Origin: an uncultured Clostridium sp.
GTDB taxonomy: Bacteria > Bacillota > Clostridia > TANB77 > CAG-508
Assembly: GCA_947647595.1 (NCBI GenBank)
Contig: CANSKZ010000007.1
Location: 1,229 to 65,228 of the forward strand
DNA length: 64,000 bases
Direction of reading: 5' to 3'
Part shown: one piece after another, positions 9,996-44,541 of the stretch
Numbering within the stretch: the stretch's first letter is position 1
How the letters are laid out: every line of letters starts with the position of its first letter
The notes under the pieces: generated by a model
What the model saw: the letters and a program-made list of their open reading frames with translations, nothing else
Databases searched by the model: none
What the model was told of the DNA's origin: nothing
Program-made: the position numbers and the translations under genes

Positions 9996-11619
<1,624 letters not shown>

Positions 11620-11710
11620 GAATCACTTGAAGTATAAAAACGAATATGATATTATGTGAACACTACAAATTAAAACTTTGTAATACTTTATATCTTATTC
11701 GGCTGTCTAA

Positions 11711-13393
<1,683 letters not shown>

Positions 13394-13404
13394 TCTGTAC
13401 TATT

Positions 13405-13982: not shown

Positions 13983-14028
13983 TTTGCAATCATCTCCATT
14001 TCTTAATCATTCTGCCATAATATTTACA

Positions 14029-14637: not shown

Positions 14638-14672
14638 CTCAACATCCGTTCTTTTTATAGCTTTTTTAGTGT

Positions 14673-15224
14673 CTAATTTATATATTCTATAATCTCCTTA
14701 AATTCTTTATATCCATATTTCTCATTAAAGTGTCCTGCATTATTTACTAAAACACTTTTGCCTTTTACAGTATTTGCAAATAATTCTGCCTTTTCTTTTG
14801 AAATATATGGGTCATTATCAGAGTAAAAACATATTATTTCATTGCATAATTCACATATTTTAGTCAGTTGTTCATCTTCCATATAAAATGAGTCATATAA
14901 ACTATTATCCTTATCAAACTGTATATTATTAAATCCTGCAACTGTAATATTCTTCTTTACTTTTATTTTATTATCTATTAAAAATTTCATTATAAAAATC
15001 CCACCCAAACTGTGTGTAATAAAAGTAGTATGTTCTGTAATATATCCAACTTTTACATAGGACATAAGTATAGTACTCCAGCTCTGATAATCTTGTTTAT
15101 ATGGTGTTGTAAAACTTGGCACTACACAACTTAGTCTTCTCTTTCTAAGTTGAGAGCTTAATGATGGAATCCAATTTTTATATGGATTGCCATAAGATCC
15201 ATGTATAATAAAATAACTTTCCAA
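14673..15224 (-). CDS. alpha/beta hydrolase, YdeN/RBBP9-like serine hydrolase
   Basis: 183 aa; nucleophile elbow HSLGG, size and layout of RBBP9/YdeN family. Confidence 0.55.
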   Translation of the reverse strand: MESYFIIHGSYGNPYKNWIPSLSSQLRKRRLSCVVPSFTTPYKQDYQSWSTILMSYVKVGYITEHTTFITHSLGGIFIMKFLIDNKIKVKKNITVAGFNNIQFDKDNSLYDSFYMEDEQLTKICELCNEIICFYSDNDPYISKEKAELFANTVKGKSVLVNNAGHFNEKYGYKEFKEIIEYIN

Positions 15225-15236
15225 CTTAAATTCCTC

Positions 15237-15992
15237 CTACAATTCTAAAATCATATCATCTTCTGCTGATATTATCTCTATACCATACTTTCTACTTAGT
15301 TCATTAGCAATGCTAACAGGGTTACTATTTAAGATATTACAATTAAAATGAGTTAGAATTACTTTACTAGGCTTTATCACTTTTATAAATTCTTCTACAT
15401 TAGCTATATCTAAATGTTTAGGCTTTGGTTTATCTTGTATATAATATGGTACATTTATTATTAAAATATCACAGCCTTTATAAGAATTTAAAAGTTCTGG
15501 AAAATATGCTGTATCAGTTACCAATCCTATGATATGCTCTTTACTTTTTATTTTAAACCCATAATTCTCAACACCATGTTTATGTTCTATTGATGATGTA
15601 ATTCCTATGTTTTTTATGGTATATTTACTATTTGGCTTTACAATATCTAAATATTCTGGGAAATTTTTTACATATGGAAATAATACTCTTTCTTCTATTG
15701 CTTGATTTGGTAATAATAAACTTCCTTGTTTTTCTTCTCCTCCATTTGTCATAAGTTCTACTAATATATTCAAATCATTTGAATGGTCTATATGTATATG
15801 AGATAAGATTATCCCATCAATTTTATTTTCATAAGTATTTATATATTTATAAAATGTATTTGGTCCTGGATCTATAATTATGTTTGTACTATCTACACTA
15901 AAATATAATCCACCTGATGACCTAATTTTCTTAAAAAATATATCTTTATTTCCTGTTGTTCCAAAAAAGTGTATAAAATCTTTTGACATCAT
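15237..15992 (-). CDS. MBL-fold metallo-hydrolase
   Basis: 251 aa; HIHIDH (HxHxDH) zinc-binding motif. Confidence 0.7.
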   Translation of the reverse strand: MMSKDFIHFFGTTGNKDIFFKKIRSSGGLYFSVDSTNIIIDPGPNTFYKYINTYENKIDGIILSHIHIDHSNDLNILVELMTNGGEEKQGSLLLPNQAIEERVLFPYVKNFPEYLDIVKPNSKYTIKNIGITSSIEHKHGVENYGFKIKSKEHIIGLVTDTAYFPELLNSYKGCDILIINVPYYIQDKPKPKHLDIANVEEFIKVIKPSKVILTHFNCNILNSNPVSIANELSRKYGIEIISAEDDMILEL

Positions 15993-16073
15993 TTTTCTCC
16001 TTACAAATCTCTATTTTACTTATTTATATCATTAAATGATTATAAAAACAATTATTTCTAGAAATTAATACAA

Positions 16074-16106
16074 AAGAGATTGCTACTGTTTATATAACAA
16101 TCTCTT
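16074..16106. terminator. terminator hairpin (AAGAGATTG-loop-CAATCTCTT) downstream of relaxase gene
   Basis: Perfect 9-bp stem just after the minus-strand stop at 16113. Confidence 0.45.
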
Positions 16107-16112
16107 CGCATA

Positions 16113-17486
16113 TTATCTGTTTAAATCTCTATCTTTTTTCTTTGTTTTAGTAATATCTTCTTGACCGTTTTTTATCTGCATTTCAATTTTTATTACTTCT
16201 TTAACTTTTGGTGTATCTTCTAAAATATAGTTTGCTATTTTCACATTTTTTCTGTACTTATTTAGTATTGTAGTGCATTCATTTCGTTTTTCTTTGTATT
16301 CTTTTATTAGATTATCTTCTGTGCAATTTCTTAGCTTATTTCTGTATTTTTGCCTTAAATCAGTAACATTTTCAATATTGTTTTCAGTTTGTGAAATATA
16401 GCTTTTTACATCTTCTGTTGTTTTTAGTTTTACTGTTACTATAAGTCTAATTTCATTAGAATATCGTTCCATTTTTCTTACTTCTTGTTTCATTTCTGGA
16501 GATAGTGGCTGATAGTTTTCTCGTTTTGGTAGTAATCCTAATAAATGAAACAGTAATAGAAAAAGTACATCAATTCCACTCATTTTGCTAATAGCTTTGA
16601 ATTTACCTTTATATTTATAAACTTTATATTTTTGTTTTTTCTTTTTAGGGTGTATAAATTCCATATATCTATTTTGATAATAATATGGATTGTGTTCAAC
16701 TTTGTTTGCAATGTTCTTTGGCAAATATTCTTCTCCTAAATGATACATTCTTACTGCTTTTTTATCATTTATTGAACGAATTGTTGGGTATTTCCTATTA
16801 TAATCATCATTGATTATATAACCTTTTTTGAGCATTATCTTTTTAAACTGTCCGTAATTTATACACATTTCCATTGCTTCATCAATAGCTTGTCTTATTA
16901 CATTATACTTTGTTGGCTCTCCTCGTTTTTCTGCAAAATATATACTTCTTGGTGTTTTTCCTGCTGGCTTTTCAATAACTGTTAGTCCATATTCTTTGCA
17001 TAGATTATCTGATAACTCTCTAAAATGATAATATGCTCCTTTGTTACAATTAAACTTTTTTCCTGTAAACATATTAACTGAATTTACTACAAAATGATTA
17101 TGATATGTGCCAGTATTAAAATGTGTGGCAACTACAACTTGGTATTCACTCCACATCTTTTCTGCAAGTTTTACTCCAATTTTATGTGCCAATTCTGGTG
17201 AAACTTCTCCTGTTTTAAAACTTTGATATGCGTGATATGCAACATTTCCTGTGGTCTTATCAAATCTATTTTGTACTGTTACCATTTCTTCATAGGCTGT
17301 TTGTGCATTACAATTTACTCCTGTTACATACATAGTTTTTTCATCTTTATCTATAGTTTTCTCATCATCTTCTGCATATTTTAATACTTGTTTTAAATCT
17401 GAAAATGTTGTCTTTTCTGGATTTTTCGCATAGCTTATTACTCGAGATATACTATCTTTAATTGCCCATATTTTCGTTGTTGCCAC
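16113..17486 (-). CDS. relaxase/mobilisation nuclease (MobA/VirD2-type, PF03432-like)
   Basis: 457 aa; N-terminal relaxase domain with His-rich motif VVATHFNTGTYHNHFVVNSV; long charged C-terminus. Confidence 0.7.
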   Translation of the reverse strand: MATTKIWAIKDSISRVISYAKNPEKTTFSDLKQVLKYAEDDEKTIDKDEKTMYVTGVNCNAQTAYEEMVTVQNRFDKTTGNVAYHAYQSFKTGEVSPELAHKIGVKLAEKMWSEYQVVVATHFNTGTYHNHFVVNSVNMFTGKKFNCNKGAYYHFRELSDNLCKEYGLTVIEKPAGKTPRSIYFAEKRGEPTKYNVIRQAIDEAMEMCINYGQFKKIMLKKGYIINDDYNRKYPTIRSINDKKAVRMYHLGEEYLPKNIANKVEHNPYYYQNRYMEFIHPKKKKQKYKVYKYKGKFKAISKMSGIDVLFLLLFHLLGLLPKRENYQPLSPEMKQEVRKMERYSNEIRLIVTVKLKTTEDVKSYISQTENNIENVTDLRQKYRNKLRNCTEDNLIKEYKEKRNECTTILNKYRKNVKIANYILEDTPKVKEVIKIEMQIKNGQEDITKTKKKDRDLNR

Positions 17487-17778
17487 TCACATCATCTCCG
17501 TTTTTATAATTATAAATATCAAGAAAATCACTTTGCATTTTTGTTATTTTCTCTTTTATTTCTTCATCACTCATATAAGAAAACTCATTTTTTAATTCAA
17601 CAATTCCATTATAAATTTTACGAAGTTCTTCATCTGGTATTGAATAAATTTCTTTTTGTAATCCTGCTTTTCTCAAATAAGATGACAAGTTTAAGTTGCT
17701 CTTTTTAGCATTCCTTTGTAGTTTTTTCTTTTCATTTTCACTTACTCTAACATTAATTCCTATTGTTCTATTTCTCAT
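17458..17778 (-). CDS. mobC: MobC-like relaxosome accessory protein
   Basis: 106 aa, RHH-like N-terminus (RTIGINVRVSENEKKKLQRNAKKSNLNLSSYLRKAG) overlapping the start of the relaxase gene. Confidence 0.6.
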   Translation of the reverse strand: MRNRTIGINVRVSENEKKKLQRNAKKSNLNLSSYLRKAGLQKEIYSIPDEELRKIYNGIVELKNEFSYMSDEEIKEKITKMQSDFLDIYNYKNGDDVSGNNENMGN

Positions 17779-17898
17779 AATTTTTCACTTCCTCTTTTTT
17801 GATAAATTTTCGCTCTGTTTTTTATAAAAACTTTCTTAAAAATTTTTAATCTCTTATATAATTTTAAATCTGTTCTTCTAATTTTTTCGTTTCTAAGG

Positions 17899-17926
17899 TA
17901 GGGGTTATAGGGGAAGATTTTTCCCC
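17899..17926. promoter_or_regulatory. TAGGGGTTA motif plus GGGGAAGATTTTTCCCC hairpin upstream of mobC (candidate oriT of element B)
   Basis: Shared 9-mer with the region upstream of MobV (9991-9999); adjacent perfect 6-bp GC hairpin. Confidence 0.35.
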
Positions 17927-18034
17927 TTTCAGCGTAAGCTGTCGGTTTTGTGGCAATACAAAACCTATGCTCGCTACACTTATAGACATTAAATTTGGCT
18001 ATACATTTGTCTGTTTGCTCCTACCTGCAATTTT

Positions 18035-18439
18035 TTATACATATATTAGTTCATTTAGTACAATTTCTTCTGATATATTTTTAAAATTATTCATCATACT
18101 AACCCAATAAAGTTGATCTGTATTTTTCATTCCTTCTGTTAGGTTATTTTGTTCTTTTAATTGCTCTATAATTAAATCAATTCTTTCTTGTGCTGTTTCC
18201 TGAATCTCTTTTAAATGTTTATTCAATGTTCCATTTATAAACATTATTGTATATTCTGCTTTTCTATTTTCTTTTAAGAAATTTAATCTCATTCTTCCAT
18301 ATTTATTTAGTACAATTTTTTCTTTTTCTAAAACTAAATTTGGTAGATAGTAATCTCCAACCTTTGTGTATTCAATTCCATATTTATTTTCCATATTATT
18401 TGTTTTTACTTCTTTATTTTCCATTTTCAATTCCTCCAT
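18035..18439 (-). CDS. tnpV: TnpV-family transposon protein (second copy)
   Basis: 134 aa; GDYYLPNL...YGRMRLNFLKENRKAEYTIMFINGTLNKHL conserved with 5387..5764 ORF and with TnpV. Confidence 0.65.
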   Translation of the reverse strand: MEELKMENKEVKTNNMENKYGIEYTKVGDYYLPNLVLEKEKIVLNKYGRMRLNFLKENRKAEYTIMFINGTLNKHLKEIQETAQERIDLIIEQLKEQNNLTEGMKNTDQLYWVSMMNNFKNISEEIVLNELIYV

Positions 18440-18451
18440 TTATTAAATTTT

Positions 18452-20294
<1,843 letters not shown>

Positions 20295-20887: not shown

Positions 20888-20973
20888 TGGTGGGCAGGGT
20901 TGGATTCGAACCAACGTAGACTCTCGTCGCCAGATTTACAGTCTGGTGCCATTAACCACTCGACCACCTACCC
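20888..20973 (-). tRNA. tRNA-Tyr (anticodon GTA), class II long variable arm, CCA encoded
   Basis: Reverse complement GGGTAGGTGGTCGAGTGGTTAATGGCACCAGACTGTAAATCTGG...GGTTCGAATCCAACCCTGCCCACCA folds as cloverleaf with GTA anticodon. Confidence 0.85.
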
Positions 20974-20985
20974 ATGTATTATATA

Positions 20986-21062
20986 TGGTGCACCATCAAG
21001 GATTCGAACCTTGGACCCACCGGTTATGAGCCGGTTGCTCTGACCAACTGAGCTAATGGTGC
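20986..21062 (-). tRNA. tRNA-Met (anticodon CAT; elongator-type acceptor stem), CCA encoded
   Basis: Reverse complement GCACCATTAGCTCAGTTGGTCAGAGCAACCGGCTCATAACCGGTGGGTCCAAGGTTCGAATCCTTGATGGTGCACCA; 7-bp acceptor stem, CAT anticodon. Confidence 0.8.
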
Positions 21063-26030: not shown

Positions 26031-27933
26031 TTAATACTTTACCACCATTCTTTCAAACTTTCCCTTAATATACTTCTCCAATTTCCCCATAAAAATTTCT
26101 GGTTCTATTTCTTTTTTCGCAACCATATCCAAACCTTTTTCCCAACTTGCCGTCAATTCTGGATTCAGCATATCTGGCATTGCCTTTTCTACCACATCAT
26201 AAATTGCCTCTCCCTTTACCGTTGGCGTAATAATTTGCGTTTTCGGGTTAATCGCTAAATACTGAATTCTTTCCAATTTTTCAATAATTGCCGCCCTTGT
26301 CGCACTCGTACCAATGCCTGCTCCCTTGATTTGTTCTCTCAAAAGCTCATCTTCAATTAATTTTCCCGCATTTTCCATTGCCAAAATCATCGAACCCGAA
26401 TTATAACGGCTTGGTGGTGATGTCTCCGCCTCTTTTGTTTCAAAGGCAAGCACAGCAATTTCCTGATTTTTCCTCAAATTTGCCAAAATCTCCAAATTCG
26501 AAGAATCTTCATTTTTTGTCTTATTCTTCAAAACCTCCAAAAATCCCTGTTTTGTACAAACTTTTCCACTAGCAGTAAATATTTCATTTTCAATCGAAAG
26601 TGTAGCCGATACTTTGTTATATTCCGCAGGCGGATAAAAAATGGCAATAAATCGTTTCACAATCAATTTATATACACTTTTCTTCAAATCCGACAATTTC
26701 TCATAATTTTCCAATCCTTGTCCTGTTGGAATAATCGCATAATGGTCTGTAATTTTGCTATCATTTACATATTTCGTTTTCACCAAATTAGTGCTATATT
26801 TCTCATCAATCATTTTTTTAATATATTGACTAACTTCTTCCTCTTTAAAATTTTTATACAGCCCATTCAAATTTTTTCCAATTTCCTTTGCAACCGCTGT
26901 TGATAATACTCTTGCATCTGTTCTAGGATACGTCACAAGCTTTTTTTCATACAATTCTTGAATGATTTCCAACGTTTCATCAGGCTTAATCTTAAAATTT
27001 TTCGTACACTCATTTTGAATTTCCGCCAAATTAAATAAAAGTGGCGCATTTTCCTTTTGCTTCGATTTTTTAAGCTCTGTTACAGTTGCTTTTTTGCCTT
27101 CCAAACTAGCAATTAATTTCTTCGCCTCTTCTTCTGTTTTAAAACCAGAATCATTATATAACAAACGACTCTCAAAATACGGAGATTTTTCATTCACTTT
27201 CCATTCTGCCTTAAACGATGATTCCTCTTCTCCAAAATTTCCAATTACTTTATAATATTTCGTTTTCACAAAATTTCGAATTTCTCTTTCACGCGAAACC
27301 ACCATTCCCAAAACACAAGTCATCACTCTACCAACCGACACAGAAACACGGTCTTCGCCAATATCTTTTGCAATACGTCTTCCAAAAATAATTGACAACA
27401 ATCTCGAAAAATTAATTCCAATCAAATAATCTTCCTTTGCCCTCAAATACGCTGAATCCGATAAACTGTCATATTCGTGCATATTTTTCGCTTCCCCGAA
27501 TTCCACGCAAAATTTCCTCTTCCGTTTGTGAATCAATCCAAACACGCTTCATTTCTGCTTTTGGATTTGGATTTGCCATTCTAAAAACAAGTCTTTGGAT
27601 ATATTCTCCTTCACGTCCCGAGTCACCTGCATTGTAAATTTCGGTCACATCTTCTCTTTGCAATAAACCTTGTACAATATGAAACTGTTTTTCCACCGCT
27701 GGAATAATCTCATATTTATACTCTTCTGGCAAAAAAGGCAATGTTTCCAAACGCCATTTTTTTAAATTTTCATCATATTTTTCTGGATACGACATCGTCA
27801 CCAAATGACCAACACACCAAGTAATAATCCATTCTGCACCTTCCAAATAGCCATTTTTTCGCGTTGTATTCACTTTCAATGCCTTCGCAAATTCCATCGC
27901 AACAGACGGTTTTTCTGTAATGATTAATTTCAT
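26031..27933 (-). CDS. topB: DNA topoisomerase III, split by frameshift near 27494-27502
   Basis: N-part TOPRIM (MKLIITEKPSVA...WCVGHL...KKWRLETLPFLP); C-part ...AYLRAKEDYLIGINFSRLLS... and C-terminal domains; frames join (ILRGI-GEAKNMHEYD) after removing one C/G in aattCgggga. Confidence 0.75.
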
Positions 27934-32007: not shown

Positions 32008-32018
32008 TAAAAATAAAC

Positions 32019-32055
32019 AAAACTTCTTCATAAATCCATATGAAGAAGTTTTATT
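32019..32055. terminator. bidirectional terminator hairpin (AACTTCTTCAT-loop-ATGAAGAAGTT)
   Basis: Perfect 11-bp inverted repeat followed by T-run, right after spo0A stop. Confidence 0.55.
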
Positions 32056-32056
32056 T

Positions 32057-32879
32057 TTATAAATATCTTGGTTCATAATTTCTTTTACGTCCATTTTTAT
32101 AAGTTACACAATGATTTTCTTTACTGTAATTTTCCATATTTCTTAATGCTTTTGCAAAATCACTTTCAACCGTATTCTTTTTAACTTCCGTCGTTTTTTG
32201 AGAATATCGCGTTGGTTTTGGAGCAACTTTTACGCTAGCTATGGTTGGCTTTGGTGCAACATCTTGAACACTTTTATCATTTCGAAACCAATCCAAAATT
32301 CTTCGGAAAAATCCTTTCTTTGTATTTTTCATTGCTGTCTTTTTGGCCATTTCTGCTTCAAACTTTCTCTCATTTTCTGCTATTTTTCTAGCATTTTCTG
32401 CTCTTCTTATCGCAGACATTCTTTGTGTTTTTTCGAAAGAACCAATTGTTGTATAAGCAACTTGAGACTCATAAGCAGACATCGTTCTTTTCCTTACATA
32501 AGCCGTTGATGTTCTCTTACCTGTTCCTTGACATTTAGCAGAAGAAGTTTTTTGCAATTTTTGATATACTGGATTGCAACCGAAGTTCTTGTCTTTGTTT
32601 TACATAAGCTTTTACTCTTTCATCTTGACTATTTTGTAAACTACTTCTCAATTCTTCTTTCAAAACAATGGTTTCACTCTTTCCATGTTGTTTTTCATAT
32701 TCTTTTATCAAATTTTCTAATCTTTTATAAGCTTTTCTTCGTACCCATTCTGAATAAGACTCATTTCTCAAAGCCAACAATTCTTGTTTAAAAAAATCTC
32801 TTAATTCTTCTTTTGTATATTGACATTCCGTTCCCTTTTCTGACTTTATTTTATTTTTTCTACGCTCTGCTCGATTCAT
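32057..32879 (-). CDS. hypothetical basic protein, two ORFs joined by a frameshift near 32578-32585
   Basis: 114-aa and 166-aa ORFs overlap; removing C in cttCggt gives ...QRQEL-GCNPVYQKLQKTSSAKCQGTG... continuous reading. Confidence 0.4.
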
Positions 32880-32947
32880 TTATTTCTCCTTTCCGAAATT
32901 TCCTTTTATTTATTATAACATATTTTACCATAATTTTCAAGCCCAAA

Positions 32948-33670
32948 TTACTTTAAAACAATAATCGCATGCAAATTTTTCTCATCCTCACTTTTGATTG
33001 CCACAATATGCTCATCATTTTGCTCCTGATACAATACTTTTACTGTATCTCCCAATTTTATCTCTTTTTTATACATCATTTGAATATCATTTAAATCAGC
33101 ATTTCGATAGACTTCTATTGGCAAAATCTCATTAGCAATATCCATAAAGTAAATATTATGCAAATGATTGTTCACATCAATCAAACTGCGATTAATCGTG
33201 AAAAAAGTAGATTTTGAAAAAGTATCTGGTTCACTTAATTTTTCCAAATCTGGTTCTTCAAATACTTTTGCATTTTCTATGGTATAGGCATCTTGCACAT
33301 CTTGCGTAATTTTCGTAATTTTCAATTTTTCAACATCCAACAAAACCCATTTTGAAGTAGCAATTCCTATGACATTTCGCATTTCATCTAAAATCTCAAA
33401 ATCTCGATACGCATATAATTTATTAATTCCTCTTGACCAAGTTTTAATCATAATTTTTTCTCCATAAATTGGCCTTTTCAAAATTTTTAATTTCCACCCC
33501 AAAAGCACCCAACTTCTTTTCACCGTCGGAATATCTTTCAAACCAAATCCCACTAAATTAGAATGCACTCCACCTGCATCTTCTAAATACGACAACAAAG
33601 CTGTATTCGTTACTTTATTATTCACAGCAACATCACGTAGTCCAATAAAAACTTCATGTTCAACAAACAT
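32948..33670 (-). CDS. acyl-ACP thioesterase
   Basis: 240 aa; double hot-dog pattern of acyl-ACP thioesterase family; start 4 nt after the stop of the upstream nucleotidyltransferase gene. Confidence 0.65.
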   Translation of the reverse strand: MFVEHEVFIGLRDVAVNNKVTNTALLSYLEDAGGVHSNLVGFGLKDIPTVKRSWVLLGWKLKILKRPIYGEKIMIKTWSRGINKLYAYRDFEILDEMRNVIGIATSKWVLLDVEKLKITKITQDVQDAYTIENAKVFEEPDLEKLSEPDTFSKSTFFTINRSLIDVNNHLHNIYFMDIANEILPIEVYRNADLNDIQMMYKKEIKLGDTVKVLYQEQNDEHIVAIKSEDEKNLHAIIVLK

Positions 33671-33673
33671 TTT

Positions 33674-34816
33674 TTATTCCTTTCTGATAATTCCTAATTT
33701 TTTATAAATATTTTCAATATATTCTACTTCCTCTTGATTCGTATCTTGAATCATTTTTATTGTATTAATTCTCGTTTTTACCGTTGTTTCCTTTGAAAAA
33801 ATATCTTTAAAAATCCTTGCCACCCAAGTAAACGGTAAAAAAATAGGCGCTTTTTTCAAAATCGGATATTTCTCCCTCATAATCTTAAATTCTGGAAAAA
33901 CAAGTCGCAATGCATATTGTGATTTTCCTTCGTTTTTACCAACTTCATAATCAATTCGATTTCTCTCACTTGCTCCTTTTAAAATAAAACGTTCCACTTC
34001 ATCAAAATCTTCTATTTTTTCTGTCCCAAACCATCGATAAGCTATTTTTCGAATATTTCGTTCAAATTCCTCTGCCTTAAATTCTTCTAGCTTTTTATTT
34101 ATTTTGTTAAAATCAAAAAACTCTTTATATTTTTCATAAAACAAATACACATCCAAAACATCTCGAATCTGAATTCCAGCATACTTAAAATGACGAATCA
34201 AATGAATGATACAAAACAGATAACTATCTTCAAGGGTCATTTGAACAATATTTTTATAATCTCTAAAAGAAATGCAAAGTGGCCAAATTTCGTTAAAATA
34301 TTCATGTGAAACATCCGCTCCAGGAATTAACTTTCGGTGCATCTCCACAATCATAAATGGCATTTTTTCAAAAACTAAATGCTTTTCATGGTCATAATAT
34401 TCCTCATATCCCAAACCCTTCATAATTTTAGAAGCCTTTTTAAAATCATCACCATGTATCATAATATCCATATCACACATCTGGCGCATATACGATTGTG
34501 GATATACTGCCTTCATGATAACACCCTTTACCACCAATGTTTTAATCTCAGCCTCTTCAAATTCATTTAACATTTGCTCTAATTCGATTGTTTCATTTGT
34601 ATCTTTCATAATCTGCCTATGATAATCAGACAAAATAAGCTGTTTTATCTCATCCGATTTAGCATATTTTTTAGCCCACTCCACCAAAAAATTACTCACC
34701 TTATGACACACTGCCAATTGATATAATTTTTTCTCATCAATCTCTTGTCCTACAATACATTCTCTATTTTCAATAAAACATCGAATGATTTCTAATAATA
34801 CTTTTGCCTCATTCAT
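33674..34816 (-). CDS. nucleotidyltransferase-family protein (PF14907/NTP_transf_5-like) of the RiPP-like operon
   Basis: 380 aa; overlaps ABC transporter stop by 4 nt; size and conserved acidic pair in DMDIMIHGDD consistent with the uncharacterised nucleotidyltransferase family that co-occurs with PqqD/HprK-like genes. Confidence 0.5.
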   Translation of the reverse strand: MNEAKVLLEIIRCFIENRECIVGQEIDEKKLYQLAVCHKVSNFLVEWAKKYAKSDEIKQLILSDYHRQIMKDTNETIELEQMLNEFEEAEIKTLVVKGVIMKAVYPQSYMRQMCDMDIMIHGDDFKKASKIMKGLGYEEYYDHEKHLVFEKMPFMIVEMHRKLIPGADVSHEYFNEIWPLCISFRDYKNIVQMTLEDSYLFCIIHLIRHFKYAGIQIRDVLDVYLFYEKYKEFFDFNKINKKLEEFKAEEFERNIRKIAYRWFGTEKIEDFDEVERFILKGASERNRIDYEVGKNEGKSQYALRLVFPEFKIMREKYPILKKAPIFLPFTWVARIFKDIFSKETTVKTRINTIKMIQDTNQEEVEYIENIYKKLGIIRKE

Positions 34817-36576
34817 TCGTTTCTTTCCTTTTCTCTTATACTTTGATTTTCCACCACAAATTCTTTATCGCAAATCTCCGAAATACTATTTCTATGTGTC
34901 ACAATCAAACACGTTCGATTCTGTAGATTCTTAATATGGCTCAAAACTTTTTCTTCTGTCTTACGATCCAAACTTGAAGTAATCTCGTCCAAAATTAAAA
35001 TCGGAGCTTGACTTACAATCGCTCTTGCCAATGCCAATCGTTGCAATTGTCCTTCCGACAAGCCACTTCCTCTTTCCCCAATTCTAGTTTCCAAACCATC
35101 TGGCAATTCTTTCATAAATTTCTGACAATCACTTACTATTAACGCCTCTTCCAAATCTTTTTCTGAAACCTTTGGATTTACGAATGTTACATTCTCACGA
35201 ATAGTACCACTCAAAATAAATTTTCCTTGAGGCACATACGCAAACATATTTCTTGTATCCGTTCCAATCAATTGCTGTTTTCCATCCTCCAGCTCAAAAT
35301 AAATCTGTCCACCATCTTTTTCAATAATCCCCAAAATGAGTTTCAAAAGTGTGCTTTTTCCAATTCCAGATTCTCCATAAATAGCAACAATTTCGCCCTT
35401 TTTAACACATAAATTCGCCTCTTTAAAAATCTTCTTGTTCTTATAAGTAAACTCTATATTTTTCACAATTATACTTTTTAAATTCTCATATAAAACATCT
35501 CGCTCAATTTCTTTTTCCACTTTATCTTCTTCCATATTTTCAAGCTCTATGATTCTTTCAGCTGACCCAATCATACCAAATATATTCTGAAAAGTCCTTG
35601 AAAGTCCAATAATCGGAGCCTGAATCTGGCTAATTAACTGAACAATCGATGTCAATCCACCAACCGTAATATTCTTCAAATACAAATGATAAGAGCTCCA
35701 AATTAACGTATACAAATAACTCACCTGAAAAATAATATTAAATCCTGTTCCAGATGCAATCGATAAACTTCTACGTTTCATTTGAATATTATATCTTTTT
35801 TCTTGCAATTCTGTGGATTTTCTTAAAATCACATCTTCTGCTCCAAAAATTTTTATTACAATTAAATTTTCAAACACTTCATGAAAAAACAAACGAACAT
35901 TTCCACTTGCTTCTTGCATTTTCTGATGAACCTTTTTCAAATATGGTTTAAACAAATTTACCACCACAAACAAAATCACTCCACCAATCAACAAAATCCA
36001 CACAAATTCTTTACTGATTCGAAACAATAATACCACCGCACAAATCAATCTAGCTACCATAGATAACATATCTGGAATCAAAGAAACCAAAGTTTCAATC
36101 ACAATATTTACATCAGAAACCACTCTTGTCATCAATTCTCCGCTATGAAACTTTACTATTTTTTCATAATTTCTCTTTAAAATTGTTTGTAATACATCTT
36201 GCTTAAAATTCAGCTCTAATTTTGCACGTGTCACTGCATCCACTGAAGCAATCATTGCTCTCAATCCAACTTCCGTTAATGATATCGTAATTAACTGAAA
36301 AATATATTTTCTTAATTCTGAAATTGACCCCGAAACCGCTGCATCAATTACATGTTTAGAAACAAAAATCAAATATACACTTAACATCGAATAAATAATA
36401 TTAAAGAAATTTAGCAATATAAAATTAAAATTTTGAGATTTTGTTTTTTTAAAAATCCATTTTATTGTTTTTACATCTTTCAATTTTTCTTCTGTTCCTT
36501 TCTTTTTTCGTCGTCCCCTTACCTTTATGCTATTGTAATCTTTTATTTTTATATCATATTCCCTAAAAAAAATCAA
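34813..36576 (-). CDS. ABC transporter permease/ATP-binding protein (exporter type, TMD-NBD fusion)
   Basis: 587 aa; 6-TM domain then Walker A GESGIGKST, signature LSEGQLQRLALARA, Walker B ILILDE; no C39 peptidase domain. Confidence 0.8.
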   Translation of the reverse strand: MIFFREYDIKIKDYNSIKVRGRRKKKGTEEKLKDVKTIKWIFKKTKSQNFNFILLNFFNIIYSMLSVYLIFVSKHVIDAAVSGSISELRKYIFQLITISLTEVGLRAMIASVDAVTRAKLELNFKQDVLQTILKRNYEKIVKFHSGELMTRVVSDVNIVIETLVSLIPDMLSMVARLICAVVLLFRISKEFVWILLIGGVILFVVVNLFKPYLKKVHQKMQEASGNVRLFFHEVFENLIVIKIFGAEDVILRKSTELQEKRYNIQMKRRSLSIASGTGFNIIFQVSYLYTLIWSSYHLYLKNITVGGLTSIVQLISQIQAPIIGLSRTFQNIFGMIGSAERIIELENMEEDKVEKEIERDVLYENLKSIIVKNIEFTYKNKKIFKEANLCVKKGEIVAIYGESGIGKSTLLKLILGIIEKDGGQIYFELEDGKQQLIGTDTRNMFAYVPQGKFILSGTIRENVTFVNPKVSEKDLEEALIVSDCQKFMKELPDGLETRIGERGSGLSEGQLQRLALARAIVSQAPILILDEITSSLDRKTEEKVLSHIKNLQNRTCLIVTHRNSISEICDKEFVVENQSIREKERNE

Positions 36577-36616
36577 CTAAAAAATAAGGCACGTTTTCAC
36601 ACGTGCCTTACACTCT

Positions 36617-36892
36617 CTATATTTCAAGAACATTAGCATCTTTTAATTTTTGAACAAACTTCTCTGTACTTTGCATTGCTCTTTCTCTATCAAATTCCGC
36701 TCCATATTCCTTCATCAATCGATTTGCGATTTCTTCTATTGTCAAATCCTCTTTTTCCAACAATTCCCAAATAAATTTTCCCGTAATATTCAAATGAATC
36801 ATGCCCTTCATTTCATTAATTAATTCACCTGTTGGTACCACGACAATCGTATCTGCAATCTCTCTTAAAACAAATCCCTTTCTAATTTTCAT
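36617..36892 (-). CDS. PqqD-family protein (RiPP recognition element)
   Basis: 91 aa; VLREIADTIVVVPTGE...LNITGKFIWELLEKEDLTIEEIANRLMKEYGAEFDRERAMQSTEKFVQKL is the canonical PqqD/RRE pattern. Confidence 0.7.
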   Translation of the reverse strand: MKIRKGFVLREIADTIVVVPTGELINEMKGMIHLNITGKFIWELLEKEDLTIEEIANRLMKEYGAEFDRERAMQSTEKFVQKLKDANVLEI

Positions 36893-37601
36893 TTGTTCGT
36901 TCCCCTTTCATCGTTCGATAAGATAATTGTACTGCTTCTTCACTCATATCACACCCCAATTGATAAATTGGAATTTGTTTTAATATCTCTTCTAATATAT
37001 CAAAAAACTTCAACATTTCATCTTTTTCCAAATTCCTAAAAGTCTGTTCAAAAAACAACTTAATGGCATCTTTAGAATCCAATTTTCGAATCCAATTATC
37101 CTTTGACTGCTCAATAAAACAAATTGCTTTTAATTTAACCTTTGTATTTCGGCTTATATCATGTTTCCCAGAAAACGGTGTTCCATAAGCATAAATACCA
37201 TCTTCCAAAATACGAATCGCAGGTTTATCATCATTTAAAATATATGGCTTTTTATCTGCTAAATAGTTTAACCAAAGAGATGTATGGGTCGATTTTCCTG
37301 TTCCGCAATTAGCCGAAAAAAAATAAGCCTCATCTTCTACAACTACAGCAGATGCATGTAATAGACATCCCTGATAATTTAGCAATCCTCGATAAAATGT
37401 ATTTCCTACCAACATATACTCTGCCAACTCTTCGCTAAATCCTGGATTATCTCTCATTTCTTTTTGGATATGTTCATCATATACAATTATTTTAAAGTCT
37501 CTTTTGGTTTCTTCTGCTACTTTATATTTCTCAGCTCTTGTCTTCAGCATTTTATATCTTGGTTCAAACTCAACAATCACCTCAGCAATTTCACACTTCA
37601 T
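36882..37601 (-). CDS. HPr-kinase-C-terminal-domain-like protein (putative peptide Ser/Thr/Tyr kinase)
   Basis: 239 aa; P-loop SANCGTGKSTHTSLW and overall size similar to HprK-like kinases found in RiPP (lasso) clusters. Confidence 0.55.
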   Translation of the reverse strand: MKCEIAEVIVEFEPRYKMLKTRAEKYKVAEETKRDFKIIVYDEHIQKEMRDNPGFSEELAEYMLVGNTFYRGLLNYQGCLLHASAVVVEDEAYFFSANCGTGKSTHTSLWLNYLADKKPYILNDDKPAIRILEDGIYAYGTPFSGKHDISRNTKVKLKAICFIEQSKDNWIRKLDSKDAIKLFFEQTFRNLEKDEMLKFFDILEEILKQIPIYQLGCDMSEEAVQLSYRTMKGERTNEN

Positions 37602-37632
37602 ATCCTTACCTCATTTGTCTATTTTCATTGCA

Positions 37633-37666
37633 AAAAATCGAGGAAGATTTTCCGCCTCGATTTTTT
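37633..37666. terminator. hairpin (TCGAGG-loop-CCTCGA plus T-run on minus strand) between peptide ORF and modification genes; partial terminator/attenuator
   Basis: Stem-loop immediately 3' of the 44-aa ORF stop, typical precursor-then-hairpin RiPP layout. Confidence 0.45.
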
Positions 37667-37801
37667 CTAATAATCTCCAGTATTATCAACTATTGTTGAG
37701 TTTTGTGTATTTTCACTACCACGTGCACGTACTTTATCTGATATTGTACTATCTACCTCTGAGAATGGTTGCATTCCCATATCTGGATCTGGAACTGACA
37801 T
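37667..37801 (-). CDS. candidate 44-aa precursor peptide MSVPDPDMGMQPFSEVDSTISDKVRARGSENTQNSTIVDNTGDY
   Basis: Not in the ORF track (<60 aa); strong RBS GAGGAGG 8 nt upstream of ATG 37801; Ser/Thr/Asp/Asn-rich, C-terminal Tyr; heads the operon. Confidence 0.4.
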   Translation of the reverse strand: MSVPDPDMGMQPFSEVDSTISDKVRARGSENTQNSTIVDNTGDY

Positions 37802-37977
37802 ATAATTTTCCTCCTCTTACTTCATTTAAAATTTAATTATCTAATATTATTATACTATAAACAAACTCTTTTGTCAAGAACTTTATGTAAATTTTTTGTC
37901 ATTATTTTATAAAAGAAAGCAGTGGAAGCCCACTGCCTTCGATTTATATGAATTTTTAACGTCTTACGGCTGACGTG

Positions 37978-40900
37978 CTACTGCAAATACTGATTGAAAT
38001 CGATTGACACAACTTCATCGCTGTATCTCTCTTCCGTTTCTCCAGTATTTGTATTTTCGATTCGGCAGTAAATCCGACTCCTCAAGAGTTTGTCTCTCAC
38101 AAATAATGCTGGGTTGACTAATGTCAGTTCCCACCGTGCATTATTGGGGTAGATTTCGCTCCCTTCAGGTTTCGGAGCAACTTTAGCCGAACCTGTTGTC
38201 AATGTAATGTCCTCATCAGCCAAAACATCGACAGGTTTTGTGGAAAGTATTATCCCCCATTCCTTTACTTCATAATTAGATGGAATATCCACCTTCGGAG
38301 TAAAGAAAATGGTATTTTGGGACGCATCTACCTCAAACTTCTGCCCAGTCCATAACAGTCTCGGCATCGGTTTTCCAGGTGTTCCAGACCAGATTGTCTG
38401 AAGAAAAACATCTTCGGCCCCCATAGTGAAATCGTACTCCGCATAGTCGCATACAATCTCACCTTTTTCGTTTGCCCAACCGTTGAAATACAACGGTTCT
38501 TCGCTTTCTGGTGCTTCACCAGCAACCAGATAAAAATGGGTTCCTTCTGCATAAAGCCCTTCTTCATTCATCAAGCCTTTATACATATCAATTTCTCCTC
38601 CCACAATATTCAATGCAGAATATCTAAGAGGATTTTCCTGGTACATTCCAGTGACCAAAACAGCCTGCTTAGCAGCTGTCCTTGCTTTGATTGCATCCGA
38701 CAATCTTTCTCCTGACTCTGAATAATATTCTTCGTCAGAATCTGAAGTCTTCGAGTACAAAACCTCGTTTTCTTCATCATCTTTCAGCATCCAGCCCAAG
38801 AACGTTGAGCCAAATTTCGGATACGTAGGAATTTCCGAAACAGATTCTCCAAAAGGAACTGCCTCTTTTAAAACCTCCTCACCGTATTGAGTAACAAATG
38901 TCACCTCTACGGTTTTATCCGATTCCCGGAAATTAACTATAATTTCCACATCCCTTGCAGGCATGGAAAAGTTAATTTTGGGGCTTGTTTCTGGAGTATT
39001 GGAAGAATTAACTCCCATGTAACTTACAAACGTATAGTCATCATTGCTGATAGACTCTAACGGAATATTACCAGGAACTACATATTCCTCATAGACATTA
39101 TCCTCAAACAAAAGATTCTGCCCATTCATCAATATTCTTCCTTTGCCGCCAACCCGACGTAGTGTCAGTTTGTAAACAGTGTTAAACACTGCTGTTACTG
39201 TCATGTTGGATTTTATTCTAAAGGTTGCTGTTGGTGGTAACTTTTCCTCTCCATTCGTCCAACCTACACATTGCAGATTGTTCGGATTGGATTCTTTCAA
39301 AGTAATTTCTGTATTATACTCAAAGGTAAGTAACTCACCTGGTTGTACAGTTGTGCCATTGACTTTAAGAACAACACCCTCAACGTCTTTGGCATTTTCA
39401 GTAACCCCAAGTGTAAGATTACACTCTATTTTCTTGAGATTACAGGTAACCGTTTTATTCTTGTCAAGCTGGATATCTATTTCCAGTCCTGAGCCAAGCT
39501 CATTTCCTTCTTCATCAATCCAATTCTCGACTTCATATCCTTCATCTGGTTCAACAACCAAATGATGGGTCCCTTTTGGAAGCTCTCTCGTATCGGAAAG
39601 AACTTCGTCGCCAAGTTTGATTACGCCATTTTCAACCCGTGTAGTAAGTTGATAGACCTCAATAAAAGTAGCTTCAAAATGATACTCTCTCTCCTCAGAT
39701 ACAATAAAACTGTATTCCCTCGAAGAAATTTTGTTACCTGCATCATCTGTCCACTCAAAGAATTTGAAGTGTTCAGTATCTTCGGCTGTAACCATAGATG
39801 CTGTTCCTACAGGAACAGGCTTCATGGCAATTTCCTTTTTGTCAATTTTGACTATTCCACCATTACTACTTACTGACACTTTTCCAGCTAATTGACGAAA
39901 AATTGGGGTAATGGTAATCGGACCATCAACCTCCCAATTAAGGGTTGGTTCTTCTCCAAGAGTGTTCCCCTCAGAGTCTACCCATTTGACAAATGCATAT
40001 CCGTCATCTGGAACCGCATCCATGTTAAGCAAATACCCTTTGCAAAATTCCTGATCTGGTAGCCAATTTGTGTTTTCCACATGACCGCCAATGGGGTTTT
40101 CGTTGACATTGATAAAATACCATTCACTGAAAAAAGCTTCTACAGTGATATTTTCTTCCATCTTGAAGGAAATACCATTTCCTTCGAGATTAGATGACAT
40201 TATTTCATTATTTACCATCCAGTAAGCAAACCTGTATGGTTCAACTTCCAGTGGTAACAATTCAATATCTGTACCAATTTCAAAGTCGAAATTGGCCATG
40301 TCATCCTCAAACTCTACCTCTTCGCCGTTCAGCATTAACAAACTGTTCGACTTTAAGGTAAGGTGACCCATTGGTATTTTTTCGAATACAGCTTTTACGT
40401 CTGTATCCTTGTCAATGGTTTCCGTCAGAGGATTTTCCTCTTTCTTCATTCCATTAACCAGCCAGTGCAAAAATCTCCAACCTTCCGCTGCTTCTGGCAC
40501 AAAATCAAATTCGGTACCTAGAACAACTTCTTTGTTGTCAAATTCTTCGCCATTGGCGAAAACTTTGCCTTCACCTTCTATACTAACGCTAAGCGTTGCA
40601 TATTCCGGTTCTGGCGGTGTAACCTGTTTTTCTGTGAATATTGCTTCCACAACTGTATTTTGGTTAATGGTTTCCTTCAGCGGATTTCCCTCTTTCTTCT
40701 TCCCATTAACCAGCCAATGAGACAATTCAGAATTTTCTCCTGGCTTTGCCTTAAAATTTACCACTGAACCAGCAGTAACTTTTTTGGTGCTCGCAGTGCT
40801 TCCGTTCATTAGTACAGAACCAAAACCCTGTACTTTTACAGTCACATCGTACTCCTTTTTTACAGGAACTGGATTGGGATTGGGATCTGGATTTGGTGCT

Positions 40901-41793
40901 GGTGGCTGTGGGGTAGGCTTTGCAGGCTCGTCAACTTTTAACGAAACGCTGTCCGTAAAAGTCTTTTTCTTACCTTTTTGGGTCCGTCCTACATACTTAA
41001 CTTTTATAGGGAATTTTTCCCCAGTAACAGTTTTGGCCGCTGATACCGAATAAGTTTTCAGTACCTTTTTTTTGCCATCCGTATATTTTGCTCTTACAGT
41101 TGAAACTGATTTAAAAGCACTTTCTACGAATTGCTGACCTTTGGTCAACCGCAAATTGGCCTTCGTTATCTGTATCTTTTTGATAGGGATAACTTTTACC
41201 CACACAGAAGCCTTACAGCTGCCAATAGAAAAGTTTAATTTCATTAATCCTTTCTTATTAGCTTTTACTGTTTTCCCAACTTCCTTACAAACTGCTCCTT
41301 TAAAATTGGAACGTTTTTTTCCATCGCTGAACTCCGCCGTCCGTTTTGTTGCTTTTAATGCATCCGAATTTGTAAGAATTTGCCCCTCATAAAGTGGAGT
41401 TTTTGTTGCTTTTACTGTGAGTTTTTTGGCTTCAATGCCAATCTTCACAGTTTCCACTTTTGTCAAGTTACCATAGAAAAATGTCAACTTGACAGTGCCA
41501 TTTTTATTGGCATGCAAGTATTTTCCTTTTTCTTGGATTTTGACTGGTACGTTAAAACCTTCACCCACTTGCGGATGGGCTAAAACTGTAGCCGACAGCT
41601 GGTCAATTTTCTGCTGTGACAATAACATGCCGTCATACCAGCCGTTCTTTTTGGGAGCATCTTCGTTGAAGTCTACCGAAATCCATGTAGCCTCACCGTT
41701 TGCTGCGTTTGCCGTCAAGTTGCTCATTGGTATTGCGGTAATCACCGTTACTAATACCAATACTGTTGCCATTAATTTCCGTAATGTTTTCAT
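37978..41793 (-). CDS. large secreted surface protein with signal peptide, Ig-like and multiple InlB B-repeat (Listeria-Bacteroides repeat) domains
   Basis: 1271 aa; signal peptide MKTLRKLMATVLVLVTVITAIPMSNLTANA; repeated F.GW/HW/YW ... AVF/AIF modules about 70-80 aa apart; Pro-rich linker PTPQPPAPNPDPNPNPVP. Confidence 0.7.
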   Translation of the reverse strand: MKTLRKLMATVLVLVTVITAIPMSNLTANAANGEATWISVDFNEDAPKKNGWYDGMLLSQQKIDQLSATVLAHPQVGEGFNVPVKIQEKGKYLHANKNGTVKLTFFYGNLTKVETVKIGIEAKKLTVKATKTPLYEGQILTNSDALKATKRTAEFSDGKKRSNFKGAVCKEVGKTVKANKKGLMKLNFSIGSCKASVWVKVIPIKKIQITKANLRLTKGQQFVESAFKSVSTVRAKYTDGKKKVLKTYSVSAAKTVTGEKFPIKVKYVGRTQKGKKKTFTDSVSLKVDEPAKPTPQPPAPNPDPNPNPVPVKKEYDVTVKVQGFGSVLMNGSTASTKKVTAGSVVNFKAKPGENSELSHWLVNGKKKEGNPLKETINQNTVVEAIFTEKQVTPPEPEYATLSVSIEGEGKVFANGEEFDNKEVVLGTEFDFVPEAAEGWRFLHWLVNGMKKEENPLTETIDKDTDVKAVFEKIPMGHLTLKSNSLLMLNGEEVEFEDDMANFDFEIGTDIELLPLEVEPYRFAYWMVNNEIMSSNLEGNGISFKMEENITVEAFFSEWYFINVNENPIGGHVENTNWLPDQEFCKGYLLNMDAVPDDGYAFVKWVDSEGNTLGEEPTLNWEVDGPITITPIFRQLAGKVSVSSNGGIVKIDKKEIAMKPVPVGTASMVTAEDTEHFKFFEWTDDAGNKISSREYSFIVSEEREYHFEATFIEVYQLTTRVENGVIKLGDEVLSDTRELPKGTHHLVVEPDEGYEVENWIDEEGNELGSGLEIDIQLDKNKTVTCNLKKIECNLTLGVTENAKDVEGVVLKVNGTTVQPGELLTFEYNTEITLKESNPNNLQCVGWTNGEEKLPPTATFRIKSNMTVTAVFNTVYKLTLRRVGGKGRILMNGQNLLFEDNVYEEYVVPGNIPLESISNDDYTFVSYMGVNSSNTPETSPKINFSMPARDVEIIVNFRESDKTVEVTFVTQYGEEVLKEAVPFGESVSEIPTYPKFGSTFLGWMLKDDEENEVLYSKTSDSDEEYYSESGERLSDAIKARTAAKQAVLVTGMYQENPLRYSALNIVGGEIDMYKGLMNEEGLYAEGTHFYLVAGEAPESEEPLYFNGWANEKGEIVCDYAEYDFTMGAEDVFLQTIWSGTPGKPMPRLLWTGQKFEVDASQNTIFFTPKVDIPSNYEVKEWGIILSTKPVDVLADEDITLTTGSAKVAPKPEGSEIYPNNARWELTLVNPALFVRDKLLRSRIYCRIENTNTGETEERYSDEVVSIDFNQYLQ

Positions 41794-44032: not shown

Positions 44033-44541
44033 TTGTTAAGTAAATCTGTAAGCCGGGTTCTGTCGTGAATAGTCATTTATCTAGGATATACATTGCTGTA
44101 TACCTCAAGCCACTCAATTAGAATCATAGAAGTCTTAAAAGAGCAAAGTTCTTCTTTCTAAAAGGTGTTGCTCCAGATGGGGTTTACACGGACGCACTAT
44201 ATCACTATAGTGCCGGTGAGCTCTTACCTCGCCTTTTCACCATTGCCATAATTATCGTGCAAATTTTTGAAAAAATTCTTTTAAACATTTTAAAACCCCT
44301 CTAAAATTTTCCCAAATTTCCTCTCTATTCATCGAGTAAATTTTTTTCAAAAATCCTCTCTTTTTCATCGAGTAAATTTTTTTCAAAAATTTCCACGATA
44401 ACTATGGCTGTTCTTTTCTGTTGCACTTTCCCTAAGGTTACCCTCGCTTGACGTTATCAAGCATCCTGCTCTTTGAGAGCCCGGACTTTCCTCTCATGAA
44501 GCCTTTCGACTTTCATCAGCGACTATTCAATTTACTTGAGA
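44033..44541 (-). ncRNA. rnpB: RNase P RNA (bacterial type B), unusually long (about 510 nt) with an AT-rich expansion
   Basis: Minus strand contains GAGAGGAAAGUCCGGGCUC (P4 5' half), GUAAACCCCAUC, and 3' ACAGAACCCGGCUUACAG (P4 3' half); P1 pairing AAGUAAAU/AUUUACUU; followed by terminator hairpin 43997-44031. Confidence 0.7.
44329..44390. repeat. tandem duplication (2 x about 26 nt core, 36-nt period) TCATCGAGTAAATTTTTTTCAAAAAT inside the RNase P RNA gene
   Basis: Two direct copies at 44329-44354 and 44365-44390. Confidence 0.5.

Follow-up and report, generated by a model that had tools for sequence, protein, structure and literature searches.

We analyzed a 64,000-nt stretch of DNA from contig CANSKZ010000007.1 of an uncultured Clostridium sp. 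(the window; coordinates below are positions in it) and, within it, a short gene that stands at the head of a putative peptide-modification operon. The short gene is a 44-codon open reading frame (ORF), which an earlier note on this DNA, made from the letters alone, had proposed as the likely substrate of the operon. Five genes lie downstream of it, all on its strand. They encode a kinase-like protein (K), a recognition element (B) for a peptide made on ribosomes and modified after translation (RiPP), an exporter (D), a nucleotidyltransferase-fold enzyme (N) and a thioesterase. From the promoter onward, the features are:

37849..37877, minus strand: sigma-70-type promoter TTGACA-17-TATAAT, 12/12 match to the consensus, 47 nt upstream of the peptide ATG
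37810..37816, minus strand: Shine-Dalgarno sequence GAGGAGG, 8 nt 5' of the peptide ATG
37667..37801, minus strand: 44-aa precursor peptide gene (lppA-like), ATG at 37801, stop TAG at 37669..37667
37632..37666, minus strand: terminator-like hairpin and T-run directly 3' of the peptide stop, presumed to be a partial terminator
36882..37601, minus strand: K, a 239-aa P-loop protein, ScmC/HprK-like (LppK-like putative peptide Ser kinase); PF27840, weak match to TIGR04249
36617..36892, minus strand: B, a 91-aa discrete PqqD-type RiPP recognition element (RRE), LppB/B1-like; PF05402, E 8.6e-15; 11-nt overlap with the K gene
36584..36611, minus strand: terminator-like hairpin (11-bp stem with 5 GC pairs) and T-run in the RRE-exporter spacer (36484..36616)
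34813..36576, minus strand: D, an MsbA-like ABC exporter (LppD-like) without a peptidase domain; 28% identity over 518 aa to LppD, E 3e-61
33674..34816, minus strand: N, a 380-aa NTP_transf_5 nucleotidyltransferase-fold enzyme (PsmN/LppN-like); PF14907, E 7e-45; 4-nt overlap with the exporter gene
32948..33670, minus strand: acyl-ACP thioesterase, 3 nt after the N gene

The lpp names in this list refer to the linear polyphosphorylated peptides (LPPs) described by Popov et al. (Nat Commun 2026). Their cluster, lppA-K-B-S-D-N, encodes a precursor, an HprK-like kinase, a discrete RRE, a signal peptidase I (SpI) of the archaeal type, an MsbA-like pump and an NTP transferase (PMC13381572). In a heterologous host, LppK added up to four phosphates to core Ser3, an internal Ser, and the S3T and S3Y variants of LppA were not phosphorylated (PMC13381572). 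The leader was removed by LppS only when LppB presented it, and the final product and biological role of LPPs are still unsettled (PMC13381572). Our reference for homology tests was the characterized lpp locus of Paenibacillus alginolyticus DSM5050 (L088). The place of the window operon near this family, published in 2026, and the perfect promoter of the peptide gene both go beyond the earlier note.

We found that the peptide gene has strong expression signals of its own. When positions 32000-38100 were scanned for promoters, the sole 12/12 match to the sigma-70 consensus was that of the peptide gene. The ORF, its GAGGAGG ribosome-binding site and its position directly 5' of the modification genes (minus strand, 37801..37667) were as the earlier note had them, and the translation, MSVPDPDMGMQPFSEVDSTISDKVRARGSENTQNSTIVDNTGDY, is identical to the peptide given there. 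The ORF had been called unannotated. It has no name or function, but it is already called as a gene on public contigs of metagenome-assembled genomes (MAGs; GCA_948793665.1, GCA_949927425.1).

The hairpin after the stop codon has a stem of TCGAGG (37660..37655) and CCTCGA (37643..37638) around an 11-nt loop. Flanking A6 and T6 tracts can lengthen the stem to 12 bp, and a T-run, TTTTTT, lies at 37637..37632. The fold is stable (-19.8 kcal/mol, z = -3.4), and none of 200 dinucleotide shuffles was equally stable (0/200). Our terminator scanner allows loops of at most 8 nt and therefore did not list this hairpin. With its stable stem-loop, its U-run and a position kept among relatives, the structure has the hallmarks of an intrinsic (Rho-independent) terminator; no known RNA family was found at the peptide locus in an Rfam scan. 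The gap between the T-run and the kinase start codon is just 30 nt long and contains no promoter match, so the kinase gene would need read-through in the window. The proposed arrangement of a precursor gene followed by a terminator, presumably a leaky one, is thus supported by the fold, by the layout of the related loci described below and by this short gap.

To place the locus among its relatives, we used K, for which the protein collection contains more than 3,600 relatives. We sampled 80 loci from species-representative genomes and added the closest relative of the window. The close clade comprises 19 distinct loci: that of the window, that of its closest relative and 17 genome-collection loci (L006-L021, L028). 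The relatives' kinases are 56-79% identical to that of the window, and all of the loci come from MAGs of uncultured Clostridia or Clostridium, of which several belong to catalogues of the mouse gut.

The gene order K-B-D-N is common to the whole clade, and so is the arrangement in front of it. An ORF of 36-60 aa lies upstream of the kinase in 19/19 loci, which provides the positional homologue at every related locus that the earlier note had suggested looking for. A perfect TTGACA-17-TATAAT promoter stands 34-47 nt upstream of the peptide ATG in 19/19 loci. Every locus also has a strong Shine-Dalgarno sequence, of the GGAGG type in 18/19 and AAGGAG in L012. A stem-loop with a T-rich tract follows the peptide ORF in all 16 of the loci that were folded, with stem sequences that differ between loci, and a hairpin is also visible by sequence in L014, L017 and the closest relative. 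This conserved layout supports the ORF as the likely substrate of the operon. The invariant consensus promoter also suggests that the peptide gene is among the most strongly transcribed genes in these organisms.

One part of the layout differs within the clade. In seven relatives (L009, L010, L013, L014, L016, L017 and L018) a spacer of 150-280 nt precedes the kinase gene and contains a promoter-like element, TAGACA-N17/18-TA.AAT, which suggests that the enzymes of that subclade are transcribed separately. In the window, a remnant of this element, ATAGACAA, lies at ~37612..37619. The earlier note had named a separate kinase promoter as a sign that the hairpin might divide the peptide from the enzymes; there is none in the 30-nt gap of the window, but the seven relatives appear to have one.

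The peptides are conserved at one end and hypervariable at the other. All peptides of the clade are acidic (net charge -3 to -12) and Cys-free. In the subclade of the window the conserved N-terminal motif is (E)DP[DNE][MA]..[IMV]Q[PL]F[STA][DE], and in the nearest relatives it is DPDM.[IM]QPFS[DE]; in the window it reads DPDMGMQPFSE (residues 5-15). The leader MSVPDPDMG.QPF that the earlier note proposed is therefore conserved only in part: the nearest relatives have this shorter block, and the sister subclade has a different motif, NYDxLDxxI.PM[ST]. The C-terminal half of the window peptide is hypervariable, acidic and rich in Ser, Thr and Asn. Ser, Thr, Asp and Asn together make up 43% (19/44) of the peptide, a figure that replaces an earlier count of 36%. 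The closest relative is fully syntenic with the window in its flanks, from recG to spo0A, and its promoter, Shine-Dalgarno sequence, DPDM.IQPFS block and hairpin are near-identical in DNA. The rest of its peptide, MATYDETTYAEDPDMEIQPFSDTIGARATTNPNGSTQTTNSSTTENKWEFD, has diverged with indels. Such a combination, a conserved recognition part with hypervariable sequence behind it, typifies RiPP precursors.

We searched for relatives of the peptide by sequence as well. A phmmer search against 1.8 billion representatives returned no sequence homologue, only the peptide itself and two compositional matches to proteins of more than 1500 aa, and a word-indexed search found no relative beyond the peptide itself. 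The homology among these peptides is therefore positional and not detectable by sequence. The residues at the C-termini of the 19 peptides vary (Y, D, L, M, P, I, T, F, V, G); none is Ser. The proposal that the C-terminal Tyr of the window peptide is the phosphate acceptor does not fit these data: the C-termini are not conserved, and LppK is specific for Ser, acts on an internal residue and rejects Thr and Tyr (PMC13381572).

The hairpin might be taken to indicate classical attenuation, with the ORF as a regulatory leader peptide whose translation controls the hairpin and which has no function as a peptide. The 5' arm of the hairpin starts right after the stop codon, so a terminating ribosome could mask it, and the downstream genes of the window would depend on read-through. 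However, no alternative anti-terminator pairing is evident, the ORF has no run of regulatory codons, and the distance from stop to hairpin ranges from ~0 to 95 nt among the relatives. Nor would an attenuation leader be expected to have 36-60 codons, a conserved motif or a biased composition, and we regard this explanation as very unlikely.

The small ORF might instead encode an independent, highly expressed acidic protein, or a secreted signal peptide, that stays unmodified, in which case K, B, D and N would have a different substrate or none at all. The ORF's own consensus promoter and terminator, the separate promoter-like element before the kinase in the seven relatives and the lack of similarity to known leaders would all fit such a gene. 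Its strict co-occurrence and co-orientation with K and B in 19/19 loci, despite extreme divergence of the peptide, would not. No second small ORF in the cluster is a candidate, the presence of an RRE implies that the substrate is a peptide, and the substrate gene of the published LPP system holds exactly this position. An independent protein is quite unlikely on this evidence, and we conclude that the 44-codon ORF is a genuine RiPP precursor gene, which is well supported.

We found that K is a homologue of the characterized kinase LppK, as judged by sequence comparison, with a predicted HprK/PEPCK-type fold and a Walker A P-loop (CGTGKST). K had no classical Pfam match in our local library and is recorded as PF27840 (ScmC), as is LppK; in contrast, the adjacent lasso kinase of the same P. 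alginolyticus region belongs to Hpr_kinase_C. The best NCBIfam model for K is TIGR04249 (E 1.9e-6), at a score of 27.5, far below the family cutoff of 125. The "HprK kinase" class of Popov et al. consists largely of TIGR04249 matches, so it shares this best model with K. In blastp, K matched LppK of P. alginolyticus with E 2e-11 and ~24% identity, and the lasso kinase PbaK with E 4e-5. When the K family profile was aligned to LppK with hhalign, the match had a probability of 97.8% (E 7e-13) over residues 77-215, the catalytic core. An alignment of 12 family members has an invariant P-loop, G-x-GKST-H, and an invariant NDDKP motif. The AlphaFold2 model of K was of high confidence (pLDDT 93.2, pTM 0.89), and in a Foldseek comparison with the PDB its best matches were HPr kinase/phosphorylase (HprK/P) and phosphoenolpyruvate carboxykinase (PEPCK), with probability 1.0. 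A PDB sequence search with the K profile found nothing.

These comparisons leave some room for a different activity, in which the ScmC-like protein would not act as a Ser kinase but would use ATP to modify its substrate, the peptide, in another way, such as by adenylylation or other chemistry derived from phosphotransfer, so that the product is not a phosphopeptide. The low identity of K to LppK, the lack of a Pfam Hpr_kinase_C match and an RRE and leader unlike those of LPPs could be explained in this way, and ScmC proper (TIGR04249) belongs to radical-SAM cassettes whose chemistry is uncharacterized. Nevertheless, the Walker A and acidic motifs of K align with those of LppK throughout the catalytic core, the best structural matches are to HprK/P, and the only known role of the partner NTP_transf_5 enzyme is to decorate phospho-Ser. 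We therefore think it unlikely that K is something other than a Ser kinase.

The recognition element next to K is of the PqqD type but outside the characterized LPP lineage. It matched the lasso PqqD models weakly. It is 38-41% identical to uncharacterized proteins that the Popov et al. dataset classes as "RRE others" (those of Dehalobacter and Anaerocolumna, a class listed there for SpI clusters of Clostridia), and 28% identical to lasso PbaB1 (E 5e-4). A PDB sequence search with the RRE gave only a marginal match, to lasso TbiB1 (E ~1), and did not recover LppB (9X8Z). The second hairpin, between the RRE and the exporter, is clear only in the window; L007 has a weaker T-run, L028 has a different hairpin with a T-run, and it is not kept in most relatives, in which the exporter begins right behind the RRE gene. 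A possible extended -10 promoter, TTGATT-17-TGaTATAAA, follows this hairpin in the window.

The 587-aa call for the exporter is probably over-extended, and its true start is probably the in-frame TTG at 36483, which gives 556 aa. The equivalent of this TTG is the start conserved among relatives, it is preceded by AAAGGAA, and 556 aa is the length called in L086.

The last two genes encode N and the thioesterase. N resembles PsmN, the NTP_transf_5 enzyme of the pseudomycoidin lasso cluster, which adds hexoses to phospho-Ser (PMC6993621). It is 25% identical to lasso PbaN (E 2e-12) and 23% identical to LppN (E 9e-7). Our literature search on ScmC and PF14907 found no further characterized systems. 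A thioesterase follows N in 10/17 of the genome-collection loci and in L086 and L087; it is absent from 6, and the sequence of L015 ends before this position. Its conservation (69-81%) is higher than that of K, B and N, and the thioesterase is probably a co-transcribed conserved neighbor and not a member of the pathway.

K, a B1-like RRE, D and N are also the tailoring and export set of paeninodin-type lasso clusters, and for both the RRE and N the lasso copies (PbaB1, PbaN) are slightly closer matches than the LPP ones (LppB, LppN). The peptide could on these grounds be a lasso precursor, with the genes for its cyclase and B2 peptidase at some other place in the genome. In contrast to lasso clusters, no ORF of this cluster contains an Asn_synthase cyclase, a Transglut_core3 B2 peptidase or a radical-SAM domain, and none of ten further large ORFs of the window that we scanned encodes an Asn-synthase cyclase, a B2 peptidase or a radical-SAM enzyme. 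The window peptide has none of the lasso precursor features we looked for (a [Y/W]xxPx[L/V] leader, Thr at -2, Asp or Glu at core positions 7-9 for the ring, and a C-terminal Ser), and the same holds for all 19 related peptides. The view of the earlier note that this is not a lasso precursor is supported, and we give the lasso explanation almost no weight.

We propose that the ORF encodes the substrate peptide of a compact RiPP operon that would be a divergent, peptidase-less relative of the LPP pathway, and we put the probability of this reading at roughly 75%. The anatomy on one strand, the layout kept in 19/19 loci and the homology of K, D and N to characterized enzymes together point to a precursor of an LPP-like pathway. 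The consensus promoter and strong Shine-Dalgarno sequence would yield a short, abundant peptide mRNA. Most transcripts would stop at the hairpin and T-run, and a fraction would read through into the K and RRE genes, which would be translationally coupled, and then into the exporter and N genes. The PqqD-type RRE would bind the N-terminal block, DPDM.MQPFSE, and present the peptide to the kinase. The ScmC/HprK-like kinase would then phosphorylate an internal Ser just after the block, possibly repeatedly; Ser14 and Ser18 are the best candidates. The NTP_transf_5 enzyme may modify the phosphate, for example with a hexose as PsmN does, and the MsbA-like pump would secrete the product, either uncleaved or after trimming by a protease whose gene lies outside the cluster. 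The chemistry of such a pathway is most likely already known.

Several results weigh against this proposal. The kinase activity of K is predicted from its modeled fold and 24% identity to LppK, and K does not match Hpr_kinase_C by sequence. LppN itself had no detectable activity in the heterologous system (PMC13381572). The promoter-like element before the kinase in seven relatives means that read-through is not universal in the clade. The phmmer search found no homologue of the peptide among the 1.8 billion representatives, and a blastp search with the RRE against five LPP-clade RREs and LppB gave no match. The window peptide contains neither of the leader motifs YxxPxVLxHQxIxFET and Px9Fx[T/A]. 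In shuffle-controlled local alignments with 8 LPP leaders, no peptide of the window clade scored above z = 2.5. Because there is no significant similarity to LPP leaders, we infer recognition of the peptide by the RRE from position and motif conservation. By eye, YAEDPDMEIQPFSDT of the closest relative resembles YARPMVLSQQPVRFET of LppA; we dropped this likeness because the shuffle-controlled alignment did not support it. Finally, the cluster has no leader peptidase, which leaves the maturation step without an explanation.

We looked for that peptidase with five SpI sequences, from clusters 1, 4 and 9 of the published sequence similarity network (SSN). In tblastn, none of these matched anything in the window's 64 kb or in any of 21 contigs of the close clade (among them two additional copies of the strain's own locus and both copies of the closest relative), although a copy may lie elsewhere in the genome. 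The same search matched 45 distant loci, always beside K or B. The published LPP search took the SpI leader peptidase as its seed and concentrated on SSN cluster 1, in which Bacilli dominate (PMC13381572). An SpI-seeded search cannot recover clusters of the window type, because the seed gene is missing there.

A fuller picture can be drawn, which we offer tentatively and would not yet bet on. This lineage of gut Clostridia may have a chromosomally fixed, very highly expressed LPP-like pathway without a leader peptidase. Its RRE might read a new, non-YxxP motif (DPxM..QPF[ST] in one subclade, YDxLDxxIxPM[ST] in its sister), and the full-length acidic peptide might be phosphorylated, perhaps also glycosylated, on a motif-adjacent Ser and exported uncleaved. 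If true, the phosphorylated linear RiPPs would include a leaderless-processing route and a new code by which an RRE recognizes its peptide.

The existence of the kinase-RRE-exporter-nucleotidyltransferase core without an SpI peptidase in gut Clostridia MAGs widens the LPP family. It is a natural experiment on two questions raised by the LPP work: what an RRE does if the pathway has no peptidase to receive the presented leader, and how the specificity of RREs diverges. In addition, the clade supplies a compact five-gene system with 19 substrate peptides that have diversified naturally.

The surroundings of the locus contain other features. A 1271-aa repeat protein with a signal peptide (37978..41793, minus strand; a faint match to Flg_new_2) ends at a terminator of its own, a short way upstream of the peptide promoter. 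The same position is taken by weak homologues of this protein (26-41% identity) in 12/17 of the genome-collection loci of the clade, and 1087-aa Flg_new-type proteins hold this position in L086 and L087. The repeat protein is therefore a conserved neighbor of the cluster, and a link to the cell envelope is possible. Directly downstream of the thioesterase are two Lys/Glu-rich ORFs (114 aa and 166 aa; 32057..32879, minus strand) without a Pfam or NCBIfam match, the longer called as 141 aa on a public contig. They are preceded by a promoter (32940..32912) with an 11/12 match and an extended TG.

Farther away, an apparent integrated mobilizable element (~10035..19753) adjoins two tRNA genes (20891..21062, minus strand); it encodes a Mob_Pre protein, a MobA/VirD2 relaxase and large serine recombinases (Resolvase, Recombinase and DUF4368). 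A topoisomerase gene appears to be split (26031..27933, minus strand) into a 154-aa ORF, annotated as Toprim on a public contig, and an overlapping 504-aa Topoisom_bac ORF; the gene may be truly split, or a frameshift or assembly error may account for the two ORFs. Between recG and smpB, among housekeeping genes, lies a bacterial class A RNase P RNA (44033..44538, minus strand; 241.6 bits in Rfam).

Among known systems, the window cluster is most like that of the LPPs. The order A-K-B-(S)-D-N on one strand is common to both, as are a PF27840 kinase, a discrete PqqD RRE, an MsbA-like exporter and an NTP_transf_5 enzyme, and neither has a macrolactam cyclase. Both precursors have a conserved N-terminus and a hypervariable C-terminus. 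In P. alginolyticus, lppA is also followed by a strong 12-bp hairpin (L088:9146..9215, z = -3.0), although this one has no clear U-run, unlike those of the Clostridia loci. The differences begin with the leader peptidase: the window clade has no SpI/SipW-type peptidase within the 64 kb or the 21 contigs. Its RRE lies outside the LPP RRE clade and resembles the "RRE others" of Clostridia. The cores are acidic and Ser/Thr-rich, whereas those of LPPs are basic and rich in Gly, Asn and Pro. The hosts are uncultured gut Clostridia, as opposed to Bacilli, and the window locus lies, in conserved synteny, in a housekeeping region (recG, smpB and rpmB at one end, spo0A at the other) beside a large surface protein, whereas LPP clusters lie in capsule loci.

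The lasso clusters of paeninodin and pseudomycoidin (PadeK/PsmK, PsmN; PMC6993621) have in common with the window an HprK-fold kinase, a B1-type RRE, an exporter and an NTP_transf_5 enzyme. They differ in having the cyclase (C) and B2 peptidase that the window lacks, in kinases that match Hpr_kinase_C where K does not, and in an acceptor that is the C-terminal Ser, a residue with which no peptide of the window clade ends.

SynChlorMet (SCM) cassettes contain two radical-SAM/SPASM enzymes. Their ScmC family, TIGR04249, is the best NCBIfam model of K and is likewise paired with a PqqD homologue, but the window cluster has no radical-SAM domain. Phospeptin, from Ca. Eudoremicrobium, is reportedly phosphorylated by a lanthipeptide-synthetase-type kinase. 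The passages on phospeptin that we consulted describe a poly-phosphorylated RiPP, which would resemble the product proposed here as a linear, poly-phosphorylated end product, and mention no HprK-like protein or nucleotidyltransferase enzyme (PMC9259500). We set it aside as a relative and treat it as an analogue only.

Related too are uncharacterized Clostridia and Oscillospirales clusters of the form peptide-K-(D)-B-SpI (L022-L085; SpI SSN clusters 4 and 9). Their kinases are 40-50% identical to that of the window and their PqqD RREs, where detected, 30-52%; an exporter is often present, and many have a short peptide gene upstream. They differ from the window in keeping the SpI peptidase (45 loci), in a YxKPx[LV]..KF leader and in the lack of an NTP_transf_5 gene. 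The presence of these distant kinase relatives beside SpI and peptides with the lasso/LPP-type YxKPx[LV] leader ties the whole kinase family to RRE-dependent peptide modification. In Oscillospirales/Acutalibacteraceae MAGs (L036:5751-9097, L062:5712-9150) we observed peptide-K-exporter-RRE-SpI clusters without a nucleotidyltransferase gene. Their precursors, MKKYTKPAVEIEKFTVADIIT...DEF or MTYNKPELDVKKFDIIEEIT...GSDLIIG, have a YxKP leader and conserved C-terminal ends. These clusters appear to be an uncharacterized sister family of the LPPs.

The window locus is not a strict LPP member; it is a divergent relative without a leader peptidase, with another leader and an RRE of another lineage. 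Gene order then distinguishes three architectures: A-K-B-S-D-N in Bacilli, A-K-(D)-B-S without N in Oscillospirales and other Clostridia, and A-K-B-D-N without S in the window clade. The window operon is a variant of the recently described LPP kind, and it is new in doing without the leader peptidase and in its different leader and RRE.

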